IMG/VR virus record: IMGVR_UViG_3300005827_000050
Span: 1-37,729 of that record
Length of the DNA: 37,729 bases
Strand: one strand, 5' to 3'
Source: a virus
Numbering within the stretch: the stretch's first letter is position 1; every line of letters starts with the position of its first letter. Below the pieces are notes generated by a model that saw only the letters and a program-made list of their open reading frames with translations, had not been told where the DNA came from and did not search any database. The translations under genes were made by a program, and so were the position numbers. Below, piece after piece: positions 11,092 to 32,858 of the stretch.

Positions 11092-11898
11092 ATGTCGGAA
11101 AAATCAAATATAAAATATATAGCAATGCTAAGCGGTGGTCAAGACAGCTCAGCAATGACGTTAAGACTCTTAGAGTTAGGTAATCCAGTTGATTATATAG
11201 TATTCTCTGATACTACATTGGAATTTGATGAAATGTACGAATATATTGATAAGCTCGATGCTTTTTTTCAGCGTAAGTATGGGATAGCTATTACAAGGTT
11301 AAAGCCTAAATCGTCTTATGAATCATGGGTGTTTAGTGATATTGCAGACTATGGAAAATTAGGAGGTCAGATTAGAGGTGTACCTCTTATTGCTTCGCCT
11401 TGCTATTGGAGAAGAGAAGCCAAAGAGCTTCCGTTTCAAAGATGGCTAAAAGAAGAACAAATTACTGAATATAAAACTTATGTAGGTTACGTTTACAATG
11501 AGTATGATCGGTGGAAAAATGCTTGGCAATATAATGCACTAACTCCACTTGTTGATTGGAAATGGAATGAGCCAGAGGTGCAGAAATATCTCAAAGAAAA
11601 TATGATGGAAAATAAATTATATCAGCATTTTGAGCGATCAGGTTGCGGAATATGTCAAAAGCAAAGCATTGAGGCAAAATATCAGCTATATAAAAATTAC
11701 CCTAAGCAATGGACTTATATGAGCGAATTGGAAACAAGATTAAAAACAGAGAGAGAGAACAGAGGAGAGGCAGTTGTGCCTTCTTTTCATACTTCATTAT
11801 TCACTTGGGATATGGAAAAACTATTTAAACAAAAAGATAAACAGCAGACTTTTGAGTTTGAATTTGAGCCAGTTCAGGACTGCTTCTGTAAGATATAA
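11092..11898 (+). CDS. PAPS reductase-family PP-loop protein (stand-alone moron)
   Basis: PP-loop SGGQDS. VFSDTTLEFDEMYEYI resembles the DTGxEFPET motif of the PAPS reductase family. CGIC near the C-terminus. It is the only plus-strand gene inside the minus-strand structural block. Confidence 0.75.
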   Translation: MSEKSNIKYIAMLSGGQDSSAMTLRLLELGNPVDYIVFSDTTLEFDEMYEYIDKLDAFFQRKYGIAITRLKPKSSYESWVFSDIADYGKLGGQIRGVPLIASPCYWRREAKELPFQRWLKEEQITEYKTYVGYVYNEYDRWKNAWQYNALTPLVDWKWNEPEVQKYLKENMMENKLYQHFERSGCGICQKQSIEAKYQLYKNYPKQWTYMSELETRLKTERENRGEAVVPSFHTSLFTWDMEKLFKQKDKQQTFEFEFEPVQDCFCKI

Positions 11899-22986: not shown

Positions 22987-23033
22987 TTCACCTTTTAAAT
23001 AATCTGAAATGGACGCACCGTAAAAAAGGTGAA
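22987..23033. repeat. 10-bp inverted repeat upstream of the late operon
   Basis: TTCACCTTTT (22987-22996) pairs with AAAAGGTGAA (23024-23033), with a 27-nt spacer. Confidence 0.6.
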
Positions 23034-23307
23034 TTAAAAACGATGCGCCTATTTCAAACTATTCTGACCTCTTAACCTATCTTGCGAAGCTACCATTGGC
23101 ACCTTATCAGAAAAGAGGAACCTTTTGTGAAACACACTATGCAGTATCGGATACCGTAAAGGTAGATCATACATCCCGCTATTCATACTGCGTTTATTTA
23201 CGGACGTTTGCTCCGATGTGTGCTTCATTAAAAGTTCCGACGCTCACCTTTCGTGAGTTTGTCGATGCAACCCCCGATTACTCAGTGATTGCGTATGTGA
23301 TATTATA

Positions 23308-23451
23308 CTATTTTTTTGCTTTATTTGCGCGATATTTTTTCATTTTACAAGAGTTAGAGCAAAACTTTTTTACTTTTAACCCTACAATTGTTTTTCCACA
23401 TACCCCACATGATGAATATACTATTTTACGGAATTGATGAATACTACTCAT
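23308..23451 (-). CDS. 47-aa zinc-ribbon protein (CxxC ... FCSxxC, TRASH/FCS-like)
   Basis: Hand translation: MSSIHQFRKIVYSSCGVCGKTIVGLKVKKFCSNSCKMKKYRANKAKK. The ATG overlaps the stop of the IbrA-like gene (ATGA). Below the ORF-track cutoff. Confidence 0.6.
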   Translation of the reverse strand: MSSIHQFRKIVYSSCGVCGKTIVGLKVKKFCSNSCKMKKYRANKAKK

Positions 23452-24650
23452 AATATTCCTTTTTTTGATTTTTTAATCTCTTTAAATCTGATATATGCAT
23501 CTGATTTAGGTTGTGACTGTCCTAATCCTTTACACCAATAATCATTTCTCAAAATACACTTAGCCATTCTTCTCCACGATGGTGCCCATTGTTTTGCCTC
23601 AAGTTCTGCTGGCACTTCATCAGGTATGGTAATATAACCTCTGTCTTGCCACGACTTGATAAACTTTTTAAATCTATCTTTGTAATGCATACCTGTTTTC
23701 CTTGGCAGTGTTTGTAATAACAAATTTGTAAAGCTCTCCCATGTGTGACCGTGTGGTTTTGATATCTTATTATATCCTGTCATATTTCCACTTTCTTGAA
23801 TATATAAAGCTCCACTATTTGCACCATTTACACGGTTTACTACTTTTCCCCACGTTTCAGGCTCTAAGATATGATATAACCATAAGCCTTGACGCTGATC
23901 GTCTCCGTATGGCTGGCATAGGCGTTGCTGTGATAATTTTACACCTGCCATATTCATTTTGTCGTAAATCTCATTATGTCCTAATGAGTTAAATTTACCA
24001 TGAAAACGCCAAATATCTTCTGTTTTCCAGTCATAAATAGGGTAAACATTATAAAGGTTGTCTTCTACTTTAGAAGTCCAGTGATAATCGTTAAACATAC
24101 CATCAATTTTATATGAAGTAATAGCACGATAACGGTGTAGGCTTTCATCTGCACGAATACCAATAAACGCAGCTGTTGGCTGATCTCCTCCGTACCATTC
24201 ACCAAACAACACCATAAACTCTTCAAACTCCATTTTATCAATAAAAAATGGGTAATCTTCTGCTACTTTTGCTTCTTTTGGTTTTTGTCTTACCCAAATA
24301 TCTTTCTTTTCTTCTTCCCAACAGCACCAGCGAGGATCGTAATTTGTAAGCGCATTTCTAAGCAATAATGGAACGCATACCCAATGTAAATCTATTACGT
24401 CTTTGTATTCTTCTATCATGTAGTGAATATGACGTATAGTATCATCGTATTGAGCTTCAAGGTCAATAATTAATAATCCAACAGTACGATTTCTTTTTCT
24501 TGCTTCTTGCAATACTAAATGAGTCATTACCGAACTGTCTTTACCTCCTGAAAAAGAGATATAGATATTATTAAAACCGTCAAAAATATTACTTACACGC
24601 TCTTTTGATGCAGTATATACATCAATATTTTTATATAATTTGGTTCTCAT
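23448..24650 (-). CDS. IbrA-like PAPS reductase-family PP-loop protein with C-terminal extension (DUF3440-like)
   Basis: PP-loop SFSGGKDSSVM, then IIDLEAQYDDT. 400 aa, the size and layout of IbrA-type proteins. Its start abuts the ParB-like gene stop (24650). Confidence 0.75.
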   Translation of the reverse strand: MRTKLYKNIDVYTASKERVSNIFDGFNNIYISFSGGKDSSVMTHLVLQEARKRNRTVGLLIIDLEAQYDDTIRHIHYMIEEYKDVIDLHWVCVPLLLRNALTNYDPRWCCWEEEKKDIWVRQKPKEAKVAEDYPFFIDKMEFEEFMVLFGEWYGGDQPTAAFIGIRADESLHRYRAITSYKIDGMFNDYHWTSKVEDNLYNVYPIYDWKTEDIWRFHGKFNSLGHNEIYDKMNMAGVKLSQQRLCQPYGDDQRQGLWLYHILEPETWGKVVNRVNGANSGALYIQESGNMTGYNKISKPHGHTWESFTNLLLQTLPRKTGMHYKDRFKKFIKSWQDRGYITIPDEVPAELEAKQWAPSWRRMAKCILRNDYWCKGLGQSQPKSDAYIRFKEIKKSKKGIL

Positions 24651-25825
24651 TAGTATAGCTCCGACTGACGAAATGGTTTTGCTTCTTCCATTGATACTTC
24701 ATCACGCCCATTATTTTTTAGCCAAATGTTAAGATATTTTAGTGCCATATTATCAGCACGCAACTGCTCATATTCGTTAAGTAAAAACCAACCGGCTCTA
24801 TATGTTGCAGGTATTCCAGTTGCATAACAAACAGAAGCTTGACCAAGCCATGCAATACGGTTAAATGCAATATTTGTTAGATTTTGCTCGCATGAATATT
24901 TCCAATTATGTACAATATAATTTAATGCCTCTTCAAACTTATTTATGTCTTTTAAAAAGTTTGCGAATTTTTGTTCCGCTTCTTCTTTTTTCATTCCGTC
25001 AACTGAGGTATTAAAAAACCCTGCGGCAAAACATTCCCACTTATCATATGTGTGAAAAATACGGTCATAAGAAGCATTAACTGTATTCCTGAGATTTAAC
25101 CGTTCCATTTCCATTTCTGTAACTTCATCTGTTAAATCTTCCCATGCTTCAAAATTAGCCTCGGTAACATCCCAAGACATAGAAAACTCTTCATCTTTAA
25201 ATAAGTCTTGAAGCCCTGTAATTTGGCAAAGTCTTAAAACTTCATCCTCATCCATCCCAAGCTCTTTACAAATACGAGAATTAGCCCAATTTCTATTTTT
25301 AAGCTCAACAACAATGTCAGACATTGCGTCAACTTTATGCTTTCCTCTTGCTCTGTTATGCCGAATTGTTGAAGCAATACGATCATTTTTATTTTCACGA
25401 TCTGAAGCCACTGCAACAATAGGAAGATAACCGTGAATTCTACTTTGAATTTCATCGCACTCTTTACCTACTCTGTGACGGTGAAAACCATCAATTACCT
25501 CATGATCTACTTTTTCGCTGTTAGACCATGTAACAATAGGCTGTGTATACCCATCGGAAGCAATAGATAGTCTTAATAGCTCCATTTCAGGTGGTGCTAC
25601 CGTATTAGGGTTATAGTCATTAGCCCCAACAGTAGTATTTTTAACCCATTGCACTAAATCTACTGGCTCAGACTTAAAAGGACTAATTTCATGTATTAAA
25701 ACACGCATTAAATTAATACAATCAACTTTTGCATCTAGCTCTAAGTTTTTTAACTTTTCTAGTAAGCATCTAAGCTCAATCTCTACATGAGATAATACAC
25801 CTTGTTCTGCATATTCAAACTTCAT
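24650..25825 (-). CDS. IbrB-like ParB/Srx-fold nuclease-domain protein with unassigned C-terminal domain
   Basis: VIDGFHRHRV and RHNRARGKH motifs. The ATG at 25825 follows AAGGTGG (the track start at 25867 is TTG). The last roughly 170 aa (DKWECFAAGFF...AWLGQASVCYATGIP...) are unassigned. Confidence 0.7.
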   Translation of the reverse strand: MKFEYAEQGVLSHVEIELRCLLEKLKNLELDAKVDCINLMRVLIHEISPFKSEPVDLVQWVKNTTVGANDYNPNTVAPPEMELLRLSIASDGYTQPIVTWSNSEKVDHEVIDGFHRHRVGKECDEIQSRIHGYLPIVAVASDRENKNDRIASTIRHNRARGKHKVDAMSDIVVELKNRNWANSRICKELGMDEDEVLRLCQITGLQDLFKDEEFSMSWDVTEANFEAWEDLTDEVTEMEMERLNLRNTVNASYDRIFHTYDKWECFAAGFFNTSVDGMKKEEAEQKFANFLKDINKFEEALNYIVHNWKYSCEQNLTNIAFNRIAWLGQASVCYATGIPATYRAGWFLLNEYEQLRADNMALKYLNIWLKNNGRDEVSMEEAKPFRQSELY

Positions 25826-25887
25826 AAATCCACCTTTATTTAAGTTACGCAAATAATAACGTAACAAATATTAAACAACGCTTTAAT

Positions 25888-31545: not shown

Positions 31546-31736
31546 TGCTTTTTACCTCGCTTTAATGCTTTACGATCTCGTTTTAGTTTAGCTTTTAAAA
31601 GAGCTTGGTTACGCTCTTCGTCGGTTTGTTTTGGCTTGTTGCTTGGGATATTTCTTGGAGGGTATGATTGATTACCATTAAATACAGTAGCAAGGGCTAT
31701 CCCCATCATTGCGGTTAAAAACATTTTACCTTTCAT
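31542..31736 (-). CDS. small protein with N-terminal signal/TM segment and Lys/Arg-rich tail
   Basis: MKGKMFLTAMMGIALATVF... followed by KAKLKRDRKALKRGKKQ. Confidence 0.5.
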   Translation of the reverse strand: MKGKMFLTAMMGIALATVFNGNQSYPPRNIPSNKPKQTDEERNQALLKAKLKRDRKALKRGKKQ

Positions 31737-31894
31737 TGGTTATCCTTTTTAGCTTCTAAAAACTTTAATATAACAGGACGTGAAAATTTATACTTTCTCA
31801 TCAGCATACTAATAGAAGCACCATATTTAAAATCCAAAAGAATGTTTTCAGACTGTTCTTCAAGTCTTTTTTGAGTTGAATTAATTTTTTCCAT
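31733..31894 (-). CDS. 53-aa HTH-like protein, first gene of the leftward early operon
   Basis: Hand translation: MEKINSTQKRLEEQSENILLDFKYGASISMLMRKYKFSRPVILKFLEAKKDNQ. AAGGTG RBS upstream. Below the track cutoff. Confidence 0.5.
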   Translation of the reverse strand: MEKINSTQKRLEEQSENILLDFKYGASISMLMRKYKFSRPVILKFLEAKKDNQ

Positions 31895-32113
31895 ATCAAA
31901 TAGTACACCTTTTAACCTTAAAGTAAAATATAAACTTATTTATCATTTTGTTAAATCTTTTTACATTTTTAAAGAAATTATTAAGAAACTTATGCTATCA
32001 TGCTCGTATCGGTTTAGAAATAGATAGGGTTAATTGACTTACATATCGCACTCAGACTTTGCGATCAAACATTAATAAAACTGGTGAGAGGGTTTTGTTG
32101 AAAATCTTTAGCA

Positions 32114-32413
32114 TGGAGCGCATATCGTAGTAATACGTGGTTACAAATATACAGCCTTGTTGCGTATCAAATGGTGCTAATGGAATACGAAACGGTACCC
32201 ATATATGCGTTCCACCATAAAGATTTACATGAAGTGCTATCAAGTGGAGTGTTCTAGTAAGCGCACTGGAAATTAAACTTAAAGTGCAAGGCGAGTTCGT
32301 AATGCGTCAGTAATATACAATGATAGGTATATAAATGGGTAGCACTTCACCGAAATCTTTACATACTGCCCCCCATAGAAGAAATTAAAAGTAGAGTTTT
32401 TGCAAGGGGTAGT
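32114..32413 (+). ncRNA. candidate structured noncoding RNA (three stem-loop domains) upstream of the tRNA
   Basis: Helices: 32114-32125 with 32203-32214 (12 bp, one G.U); 32230-32241 with 32338-32349 (12 bp, one G.U); 32365-32372 with 32406-32413 (8 bp, one G.U). Internal hairpin 32126-32137 has a GUAA loop. Strand is assumed from the adjacent tRNA. Confidence 0.45.
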
Positions 32414-32423
32414 TATAGAGCTT

Positions 32424-32499
32424 ATATGCCTATGTCTCAAGGTGACGAGTTAGACTCCAAATCTGACTGTGATAGGTTCGATTCCTATGGTATATGCCA
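32424..32499 (+). tRNA. tRNA-Trp (anticodon CCA), CCA end encoded
   Basis: Manual cloverleaf. Acceptor 32424-32430 with 32489-32495. D stem TGTC/GACG with GG in the loop. Anticodon stem TTAGA/TCTGA with loop CTCCAAA. 5-nt variable loop. T arm ATAGG-TTCGATT-CCTAT. Discriminator G plus CCA. Total 76 nt. The A-U rich acceptor and short D loop are atypical. Confidence 0.75.
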
Positions 32500-32586
32500 T
32501 TAGTTTTTACTAAATCATCTTTAGAGGTGGTTTTAAATGACTGAAAAAACACTCAACTAAGTTAAATAAAAAAGGTGGATGAAACA

Positions 32587-32790
32587 ATGAAAGCAAAAAT
32601 CGAAGTAATTATTAAGCACACATACAGCGTGGAAATTGAGATTTCCGATTATTCAGAAGATGAAACAGTAGAGGGGCAGGCGGCATGGCTATTGAAAATC
32701 AATGGAGATAGTAAAGCATTGTATGGGATTTGTAAAGAAGAAGTTGACCCATATACAGCAATGGAATCGTCAATCAAGGTTATCAAATGA
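32587..32790 (+). CDS. hypothetical acidic early protein
   Basis: ATG 11 nt after AAGGTGG. The track start at 32575 is GTG. Confidence 0.5.
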   Translation: MKAKIEVIIKHTYSVEIEISDYSEDETVEGQAAWLLKINGDSKALYGICKEEVDPYTAMESSIKVIK

Positions 32791-32858
32791 AAAAAATTAA
32801 GCACTTCCTACTTCGTCAAGAGGTAAAGTTTGGGCGATTAGCTGAAAGGTTGTTTTAA

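Follow-up and report, generated by a model that had tools for sequence, protein, structure and literature searches.

Nature and structure of the region upstream of tRNA-Trp

The virus record IMGVR_UViG_3300005827_000050 (IMG/VR; analysed over its full length of 37,729 nt, hereafter the window) harbours a region devoid of credible open reading frames (ORFs) between the genes starting at 31894 on the minus and at 32587 on the plus strand. The region includes a tRNA-Trp gene and raises the question whether it encodes one large RNA, several small RNAs, or an element acting at the level of DNA. A preliminary description, made from the sequence, had favoured a large ornate RNA next to the tRNA, either of a known type such as GOLLD or ROOL or of a new class, with a DNA-level element as further possibility. 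According to the present analysis, the region is a real, undescribed and modular locus of phage non-coding RNA (ncRNA) attached to a tRNA gene. Of the earlier proposal, the non-coding nature, the structure of the plus strand and the link to the tRNA stand; one large ornate RNA does not.

Base-pair checks agreed with the three helices initially described, i.e., 32114-32125 with 32203-32214 and 32230-32241 with 32338-32349 (12 bp and one G.U each) as well as 32365-32372 with 32406-32413 (8 bp, one G.U), and with the four nested hairpins including the GNRA-capped CGUA-GUAA-UACG (32126-32137). Likewise, both gene starts agree with the ORF list, and the tRNA-Trp(CCA) called by ARAGORN (32424-32499) begins 10 nt past the last helix. 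Two 12-bp helices had been regarded as improbable by chance, which is borne out by 500 dinucleotide-preserving shuffles of 32040-32423: at least one such helix was present in 3 % and at least two in 0.6 % of them. Each 12-bp helix is prolonged outward by a 9-bp helix across a 3x3 internal loop. The two resulting bipartite helices (modules M1 and M2) are the only ones with an inner part of at least 12 bp and an outer part of at least 9 bp on both strands of the window, the expectation being 0.02 per block-shuffled window. Only these strict limits pick M1 and M2; with looser ones (inner at least 9 bp, outer at least 7 bp), bipartite helices are no commoner than in shuffles.

The predicted fold of the plus strand of 32040-32423 has a free energy of -104.4 kcal/mol (z = -3.63; 0 of 100 shuffles as stable), as compared to -77.9 kcal/mol (z = -0.56) for the minus strand. 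This fold contains no pairing between modules, and inclusion of the tRNA adds long-range pairs only between the 5' leader and the tRNA region. Taken together, these data support a non-coding region whose plus-strand structure clearly exceeds chance expectation and which is physically linked to a functional-looking tRNA.

The region comprises the following modules:

32102..32226, plus strand: module M1 (z = -3.84; helix check)
32102-32110 with 32218-32226, plus strand: outer linker helix of M1
32111-32113 (GCA) and 32215-32217 (CCA), plus strand: 3x3 internal loop of M1
32114-32125 with 32203-32214, plus strand: inner stem of M1
32114 (U-1), 32115 (G+1), 32214 (A73) and 32215-32217 (CCA), plus strand: tRNA-like ends of M1, as read from the sequence
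32126-32202 (77 nt), plus strand: interior of M1, including the GNRA hairpin 32126-32137
32218..32361, plus strand: module M2 (z = -4.96; helix check)
32218-32226 with 32353-32361, plus strand: outer helix of M2, its 5' linker being the 3' linker of M1
32227-32229 (ACA) and 32350-32352 (CCG), plus strand: internal loop of M2
32230-32241 with 32338-32349, plus strand: inner stem of M2
32242-32337, plus strand: interior of M2
32357..32420, plus strand: module M3 (z = -2.31 on the plus strand, +0.18 on the minus strand)
32357-32361 with 32416-32420, plus strand: outer helix of M3 (5 bp)
32365-32372 with 32406-32413, plus strand: inner stem of M3 (8 bp; loop 3x2)
32373-32405, plus strand: interior hairpin of M3
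32424..32499, plus strand: tRNA-Trp(CCA) with encoded CCA end (ARAGORN), the only tRNA in the window

The ends of M1 (U|GGAGCGCAUAU...A-CCA) and M2 (U|GAAGUGCUAUC...A-CCG) are of the acceptor type and combine U-1, G+1, an 11-12-bp stack, A73 and a CC in the unpaired 3' side of the loop, a combination not found in M3 (U|ACUGCCCC...U-AUA). These acceptor-like ends are suggestive, but not defining. The linkers of the window read, in order, AAAUCUUUA / UAAAGAUUU / AAAUCUUUA, and those of related phages AAAGCUUUA / UAAAGCUUU, the difference amounting to one coordinated change. Since the middle linker can pair with either neighbour, adjacent outer helices compete.

Conservation of the closing helices

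Relatives were collected by exact-pattern scans (patterns of M1, M2, M3, a further module M4, the 3' boundary and the closing helices) and by look-ups of neighbouring genes. Matches to short patterns mostly represent chance occurrences in coding DNA; the true relatives are contigs L002/L004/L102, L007/L097, L043/L100/L105/L001, L095, L109, L110, L160, L173, L178, L219 and L231. The closing structure common to the modules, referred to as shell, consists of a 9-bp linker helix, a 3x3 loop (5'-RYA opposite 5'-CCR) and an inner stem of 10-12 bp, which starts with U|G(R)AG and finishes with YUYC-A-CC(A/G). U-1 was found in all shells examined, and the loop bases G.A and A.G are swapped between M1 and M2.

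In an alignment of seven shells from five phages (interiors removed), 96.2 % of the cells pair, as opposed to at most 50 % in slid registers. Both sides have changed in 12 of the 19 shell pairs, and the observed covariation score was matched by none of 500 shuffles. The covariation in relatives that the preliminary description had called for is present in the shells and absent from the M3 stem, where one uncompensated change was found. Among the 219 pairs of thirteen shells (8-21 pairs per shell), 20 G.U pairs contrast with zero A.C mismatches on the sense strand, which fits selection on the transcribed strand rather than on duplex DNA. Together with the co-orientation of the structured regions with their flanking genes (see below), this asymmetry disfavours the DNA-level element considered at the outset.

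Exchange of modules and interiors between related phages

The closing helix of M1 (AAAGCUUUA-GUA-UGGAGCGCAUA ... UAUGCGUUCCA-CCA-UAAAGCUUU) occurs in L002, L007 and L043, enclosing interiors of 81, 70 and 64 nt, respectively; these are unrelated in sequence and predicted fold to each other and to the 77-nt interior in the window. The shell L178a is a covarying variant of the M1 shell, and L219 (3633-3706) contains an M2-type shell (AUGAAGUGGU / ACCACUUCA-CCG) with one compensatory change and another interior. A homologue of M3 in L043/L105 (81 % identity) retains both stem arms around a different interior. In L043 it follows a tRNA-like element, whereas M3 of the window precedes the tRNA. In L002, M1 alone is located directly before tRNA-Trp, the unit residing within an operon downstream of recombination genes. 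M1-M3 are thus separated, reordered and re-partnered in related phage contigs, which is incompatible with a single large conserved RNA.

The interior (cargo) of the L002-type M1 recurs at a second locus in L007 with eight substitutions, four of which form two compensatory pairs, indicating that the cargoes themselves are under structural selection. No common enriched k-mer or sequence motif was found among cargo interiors. The M1 of L007 holds a canonical T arm, i.e., a T-arm plus 3' acceptor fragment of a tRNA.

M4 is found in relatives only (L043, L007, L109 and L160):

L105 4312-4482; L007 2950-3142 (minus strand); L109 5494-5652; L160 4214-4524: module M4

It is composed of a tRNA-Leu-like D arm (GUGGCGGAAUAU..AGACGC), a covarying closing stem, a variable centre of up to ~290 nt and a T-arm-like hairpin which has the same stem as that of the window tRNA-Trp and is stacked on the closing helix. 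The 3' half of M4 from L160 aligns to positions 23-76 of the window tRNA-Trp (z = 7.8), and the 5' part of M4 from L007 to the D arm and anticodon stem of tRNA-Leu (z = 4.9). Judged from these alignments, M4 is demonstrably an expanded tRNA-derived RNA. M2 was rejected as a diverged M4, given z values of 0.07-3.5 versus 5-11 among true M4 copies. The M4 of L160 lies reversed between 57-bp perfect inverted repeats at the contig end, which may reflect an inversion or a fold-back assembly artefact. The tRNA-like element of L043 (13046-13112; 35.9 bits with the Rfam tRNA model) has an anticodon arm cut to 13 nt, is not called by ARAGORN and is enclosed by an extended acceptor helix (GUUGGUAUAUAG / CUAUAUACCAAC); the same helix houses M4 in L160.

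A second structured island in the window

The shell search identified a second gene-free island on the minus strand of the window:

22990..23306, minus strand: island 2, gene-free, ~320 nt
23306-23301, minus strand: TATAAT box of island 2
~23237-23117, minus strand: shell of island 2, GGAACUUUUAA-UGAAGCACAC[80 nt]GUGUGUUUCA-CAAAAGGUUCC

Along the minus strand, the TATAAT box is followed by two hairpins, the shell module, more hairpins and the ribosome-binding site of the next gene. The fold is more stable than expected on the minus strand (z = -5.33) and less markedly so on the plus strand (z = -2.21), both window islands being co-oriented with their flanking genes. In the homologue of island 2 in L043 (6165-6446, minus strand), near-identity extends over the shell and most of the flanks, while 32 unrelated nt stand in place of the 80-nt interior of the window. 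Such exchange bounded exactly by the shell arms recurs across the phage group.

A 59-aa ORF (23049..23228, minus strand) starts at the AUG of the island-2 shell and stays in frame in L043 despite the 48-nt difference in the interior; it matches no PHROG family. This frame is probably a coincidence, although it represents the best case for a small protein in the islands.

The tRNA-Trp gene

The tRNA-Trp forms a cloverleaf with the D stem UGUC/GACG, GG in the D loop, the T loop UUCGAUU and a 7-nt anticodon loop. The sequence contains A1-U72, G73 and the anticodon CCA (at 34), which are the identity elements of bacterial tRNA-Trp. Its best match within the Rfam tRNA clan was 28.9 bits (tRNA-Sec model; threshold 47), the tRNA model scoring lower and being suppressed by clan overlap; the low score is probably due to the A/U-rich acceptor stem. 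The homologue in L002 differs by seven substitutions, all compatible with the structure, including the compensatory pairs 29:41 (A-U to G-C) and 49:65 (A-U to C-G). From these features, the tRNA-Trp looks functional.

Relation to known RNA families

Neither the RNAs initially suggested as search targets (GOLLD, ROOL, HEARO and tmRNA) nor any other family of Rfam 15 matched the window at gathering score, and ARAGORN did not call a tmRNA. A permissive search of 31700-32800 (E<=10) recovered only the tRNA region, other matches (E>0.4) belonging to unrelated eukaryotic or enterobacterial families, and nothing relevant was retrieved from Rfam for island 2 or the islands of relatives. As far as covariance models tell, these four families are therefore excluded, and the designation as a new class appears fair insofar as no described RNA family matches. 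The locus is most similar to processing-signal and tRNA-like systems, and a member of neither.

Proposed processing of a small-RNA array

We tentatively propose, with somewhat less than an even chance of being correct, that the region constitutes a polycistronic array close to the promoter, from which tRNA-Trp and several acceptor-stem-like small RNAs enclosed by hairpins are excised at the shells. The rightward early transcript would have 32008-32499 as its non-coding 5' portion, and this RNA, starting at about 32008, would be cut at the shells into M1, M2, M3 and tRNA-Trp. Being the conserved part, the shell is probably also the working part. Its U|G ... A-CC pattern corresponds to features of RNase P substrates, the proposed site of RNase P cleavage being U|G. 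The ~21-bp helix, which spans two turns and contains the internal loop, could be a target of RNase III or of both enzymes. With 9 bp, a 3x3 loop and 12 bp, M1 and M2 have the dimensions of T7-type RNase III signals (~20-22 bp with an internal loop). It is the coincidence of this RNase III-type bipartite helix with the RNase P-type features on which cleavage at the shells is proposed. The idealised RNase III substrate is a 22-bp double-stranded RNA in which internal loops lead to single-strand cuts, and the early polycistronic RNA of T7 is cut at five RNase III signals (PMC3867540). The cargo in each shell would then be a separately selected small RNA, and related phages would swap cargoes, probably by recombination over the conserved shell arms (~20 nt on each side).

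Several findings weigh against this proposal. Shells were chosen partly by eye or by a pairing-dependent regular expression, so that the covariation counts are ascertainment-biased, and three M1 rows of the alignment have one inner stem in common; despite this bias, the direction and size of the shell covariation signal are clear. The comparison set is small (about ten uncultured contigs). The strand asymmetry is modest when modules are taken singly (plus versus minus strand: M1, -3.84 versus -3.02; M2, -4.96 versus -4.41; M3, -2.31 versus +0.18), since both strands of a near-perfect inverted repeat fold. The CC(A/G) tail is lacking in the shells of island 2, L178b, L007b and M3 and can therefore not be essential to all shells. 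Alignments of the M1-M3 ends with tRNA-Trp do not exceed the shuffle level (p = 0.2-1.0), and 32040-32423 is without any match to a tRNA covariance model. Neighbouring outer helices, sharing one linker, are mutually exclusive. The M3 stem shows one uncompensated and zero compensatory changes relative to L043. Finally, the interiors of M1 and M2 of the window have no homologue, leaving thermodynamics as the support for their nested hairpins.

In a more far-reaching and rather unlikely version, the shells would be part of a cassette system, in which an acceptor-end mimic serves as expression and processing frame for unrelated structured cargoes that are swapped between phages, the outcome being fast-changing tRNA-end mimics. 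If so, these mimics might act as decoys or sponges for tRNA-targeting defence nucleases, nucleotidyltransferase toxins, RNase P or the CCA-adding enzyme; alternatively, the cargoes might function as aptamers in the course of an arms race. The tRNA genes of phages are commonly viewed as accessories for codon usage or anti-defence, and the surrounding DNA is ignored. Provided that the modules are excised and stable, they would represent a new route for phages to package and diversify small RNAs as well as concrete candidates for counter-defence by RNA in a host lineage that has received little study. The shell pattern is also usable for finding further islands in metagenomes.

Alternative explanations

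It is improbable, though not far-fetched, that the region acts in cis as leader of the rightward early operon, with hairpins tuning elongation, termination, mRNA stability or translation. Its location between the putative promoter and the first rightward gene would suit this role, as would the corresponding location of island 2 between a -10 box and a ribosome-binding site, a conserved boundary element resembling a Shine-Dalgarno (SD) sequence at 32502-32537, and a promoter-proximal element of the relatives (motif X, nine instances with covarying P1 and P2; see below). However, the window is devoid of motif X, no terminator-like site was detected in the region, and the same modules precede unrelated genes in varied orders and are even found inside an operon in L002. 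Moreover, a leader would need neither interchangeable cargoes nor a tRNA.

Also unlikely is an origin as palindromes at the DNA level, i.e., insertions resembling miniature inverted-repeat transposable elements (MITEs) or Correia elements, recombination linkers, cruciforms or single-strand initiation signals, for which RNA folding would be incidental. Conserved inverted arms around variable interiors, the presence of the same arms at several loci and the palindromic AAGCTT core of the linkers are in line with such an origin, and the phage encodes Sak4-, NinB- and RusA-like recombination functions. In addition, Correia inverted-repeat elements are bound by RNase III, which then cleaves or protects (PMC2649163). 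The L160 module placed in opposite orientation within the 57-bp perfect inverted repeat would fit as well, but, being located at the very end of its contig, may have arisen as an assembly artefact by fold-back. Against this origin, the 20 G.U versus 0 A.C in shell stems refer to the strand running with the flanking genes, the copies have no core sequence in common, and the interior structure shared by L002 and L007 is kept by compensatory changes. Inspection of the relatives' sequences did not reveal a consistent direct repeat, and thus no consistent target-site duplication, at shell borders. The GTTRRRY motif of integron attC sites is not present at shell ends, and no integron-type integrase or recombinase was found among that part of the window proteins that was scanned.

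Decay of a tRNA cluster, leaving M1-M3 as non-functional remnants beside a surviving tRNA-Trp, is quite doubtful. The truncated tRNA-like slot in L043, the T-arm and 3' acceptor fragment within M1 of L007, the likeness of M4 to tRNA-Trp and tRNA-Leu and the acceptor-like ends of M1 and M2 could be viewed as traces of such a process. On the other hand, the shell helices are maintained by compensatory change, their loop is conserved, the folds are far stabler than shuffles, and M1-M3 have no detectable sequence similarity to tRNAs; decay would also leave the precise replacement of interiors within intact shells unexplained.

A single ornate RNA of the GOLLD/ROOL type folding as one unit is largely refuted and very improbable: a densely structured stretch of ~380 nt (fold z = -3.6 to -3.8) adjoins a phage tRNA, but Rfam provides no match, the domains are separated, reordered and re-partnered in related phages, and the predicted fold of 32040-32423 lacks pairing between modules.

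Least credible of all is the encoding of small proteins, from AUGs in the stems (AUG-GAG or AUG-AAG) or from minus-strand ORFs of 63 and 53 aa: an AUG does open the 5' arm in the shells of M1, M2, L178a, L178b, L219 and island 2, and the 59-aa frame of island 2 is open in L043 (the 48-nt difference being a multiple of three), but M1 frames end after 5-17 codons, varying by phage (AUG frames on the plus strand of the window: 5 codons in M1, 15 in M2), no SD sequence precedes the AUG, itself occluded within a 12-bp helix, none of these ORFs has a significant PHROG match (including 32052..32243 and 32279..32440, both minus strand), the minus-strand ORFs cover interiors replaced in relatives, and coding does not explain the complementarity of the arms. 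This agrees with the initial dismissal of 32052..32243, which spans the M1 interior that is replaced in every related phage.

Comparison with known systems

With respect to cleavage signals, the R-sites of T7 resemble the shells in being helices that span about two turns, contain an interrupting internal loop and are located between the units of an early polycistronic transcript (PMC3867540). In contrast to the T7 sites, which are simple capped hairpins, the upper stem of the shells encloses 30-100 nt of unrelated structured cargo. Furthermore, the shells have a conserved loop pattern of their own (RYA/CCR) and are putative cleavage sites, in a host that is unlikely to be an enterobacterium. 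The processing stalks of rRNA operons resemble the shells in that they are long-range stems around a structured RNA and in that tRNAs are present on the same precursor.

Substrates of RNase P other than tRNA precursors comprise the precursors of C4 antisense RNA (P1/P7), tmRNA and 4.5S RNA, and stable RNAs are co-transcribed in the tRNA cluster of T4. Common to these systems and the modules would be the release of a small ncRNA from a larger phage RNA, an acceptor-like helix bearing a 3' tail of the RCCA type, and co-transcription with a tRNA. The modules differ by the lack of sequence or covariance-model similarity and by their tails (CCA in M1, CCG in M2, none in M3). Their acceptor-like stem is clamped by a linker helix, and their cargoes are interchangeable.

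GOLLD and ROOL RNAs are phage-associated, non-coding, highly structured and often adjoin tRNA genes (PMC12286853). The present locus shares with them the phage-associated structured ncRNA beside a tRNA, but measures only ~380 nt and consists of three autonomous modules of ~65-145 nt without a conserved multi-domain fold. The Correia elements of Neisseria have inverted-repeat arms and can supply promoters as well as RNA hairpins bound by RNase III (PMC2649163). Whereas these chromosomal repeats contain a conserved core, the modules enclose unrelated interiors, no target duplication was seen, and their asymmetry of G.U versus A.C suggests that selection acts on the RNA.

In tmRNA and the bacterial Y-RNA-like YrlA, the acceptor-type closing helix is likewise kept while the body is replaced, and M4 in particular resembles them by its T-arm-like hairpin on the closing stem and its tRNA-Leu-like D arm. 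Differences are the absence of a tmRNA according to ARAGORN and Rfam, of a tag reading frame, of a Ro/Rsr-type protein among the window proteins scanned, and of recognisable T or D arms in M1-M3.

Promoter, boundaries and genomic context

Upstream and downstream of the modules and the tRNA, the following features were assigned:

31993..32001, plus strand: putative extended -10 element TGcTATCAT (TG 31993-31994, hexamer 31996-32001), read from the sequence
32008..32101, plus strand: leader with two hairpins (32045-32065, 32072-32101) in the minimum-free-energy fold
32502..32537, plus strand: conserved 3' boundary element, AGUUUUUaCUAAAUCAUCUUUAGAGGUGGUUU (87-92 % identity in L043, L007 and L095)
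32537..32560, plus strand: 7-codon mini-ORF following the boundary element

Transcription would start near 32007-32009, downstream of the putative -10 element. At the aligned position, L043 and L105 carry TGaTAGAAT followed by the conserved ATGCTCRTATCGGTT, and the islands of relatives begin directly past TATAAT or TACAAT boxes. A consensus promoter scan, which demands a -35 hexamer, did not list TGcTATCAT. The leader is the least certain part of the region, its stability being at the shuffle level (z = -0.65) and its alignment to L043 weak (63 % identity). The boundary element (CUAAAUCAUCUUUAGAGGUGGUUU) is found in four phages at the downstream edge of the RNA island, ahead of unrelated genes, and its SD-like AGAGGUGG is located 7 nt upstream of the mini-ORF. 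The region shows no meaningful complementarity to other parts of the window that might indicate antisense targeting.

The window is a complete JGI contig of a siphovirus-like phage, the terminase of which is only ~42 % identical to those of cultured siphoviruses. The left flank of the region contains small genes as well as genes for an O-like replication initiator and a DnaB-like helicase, the right flank genes for a Sak4-like ATPase, NinB/Orf, HNH and SSB. The 67-aa protein encoded by the right-hand neighbour has no homologue except itself. Neither the region nor island 2 nor one related island had a blastn match among 50,697 records of cultured phages. The Sak4-like protein is 73 % identical to one in the prophage of a Campylobacteraceae metagenome-assembled genome (MAG), next to an integrase and tRNA-Leu. 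This prophage is the sole hint at a host, whose lineage is probably the Campylobacterota. The nearest genome-borne relative (L230, 12503-13487) is a Campylobacteraceae MAG prophage, the integrase of which adjoins tRNA-Leu(GAG), suggesting a temperate phage group that uses tRNA genes as integration sites. No integrase was found among the window ORFs scanned, a scan covering only part of the ORFs.

Two proteins similar to phosphoadenosine phosphosulfate (PAPS) reductase and a ParB-like protein are encoded in the window (11092..11898, 23448..24650 and 24650..25867). Island 2 is located directly downstream of the PAPS-reductase-like/ParB-like cluster, which may be guessed to be a DNA-modification module.

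Further structured elements

Motif X was found in nine instances among the relatives:

L002 7524-7591; L105 5218-5291; L110 5334-5401; L160 4108-4177; L173 4992-5066: motif X
L178 8802-8871 (minus strand); L219 3466-3533; L231 942-1017; L007 2124-2201 (minus strand): motif X

It forms a three-way junction of ~55 nt with the invariant GAAUACAGCG..CACUGA..CAUCGG and the loop GAUACGGGG, and covaries in 9 of 9 P1 pairs and 2 of 5 P2 pairs. In several phages it is located 7-10 nt past a TATAAT or TACAAT box, elsewhere just before a gene start. No match was found in Rfam, and its presence inside M1 of the window was ruled out by a covariance model. Motif X could be a leader element, e.g., an antiterminator or riboswitch.

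Chance matches to the shell pattern also led to a conserved element of 106-109 nt (GGAGCGCA...CCCGAGUACCGCC...CGCGUUCCACCA) in L011, L021, L027, L051, L057, L084, L086 and L090, which is unrelated to the phage studied here. It contains visibly covarying hairpins, is located less than 150 nt from the end of ~2.4-kb viral contigs and may represent a terminal structured element of small RNA viruses.

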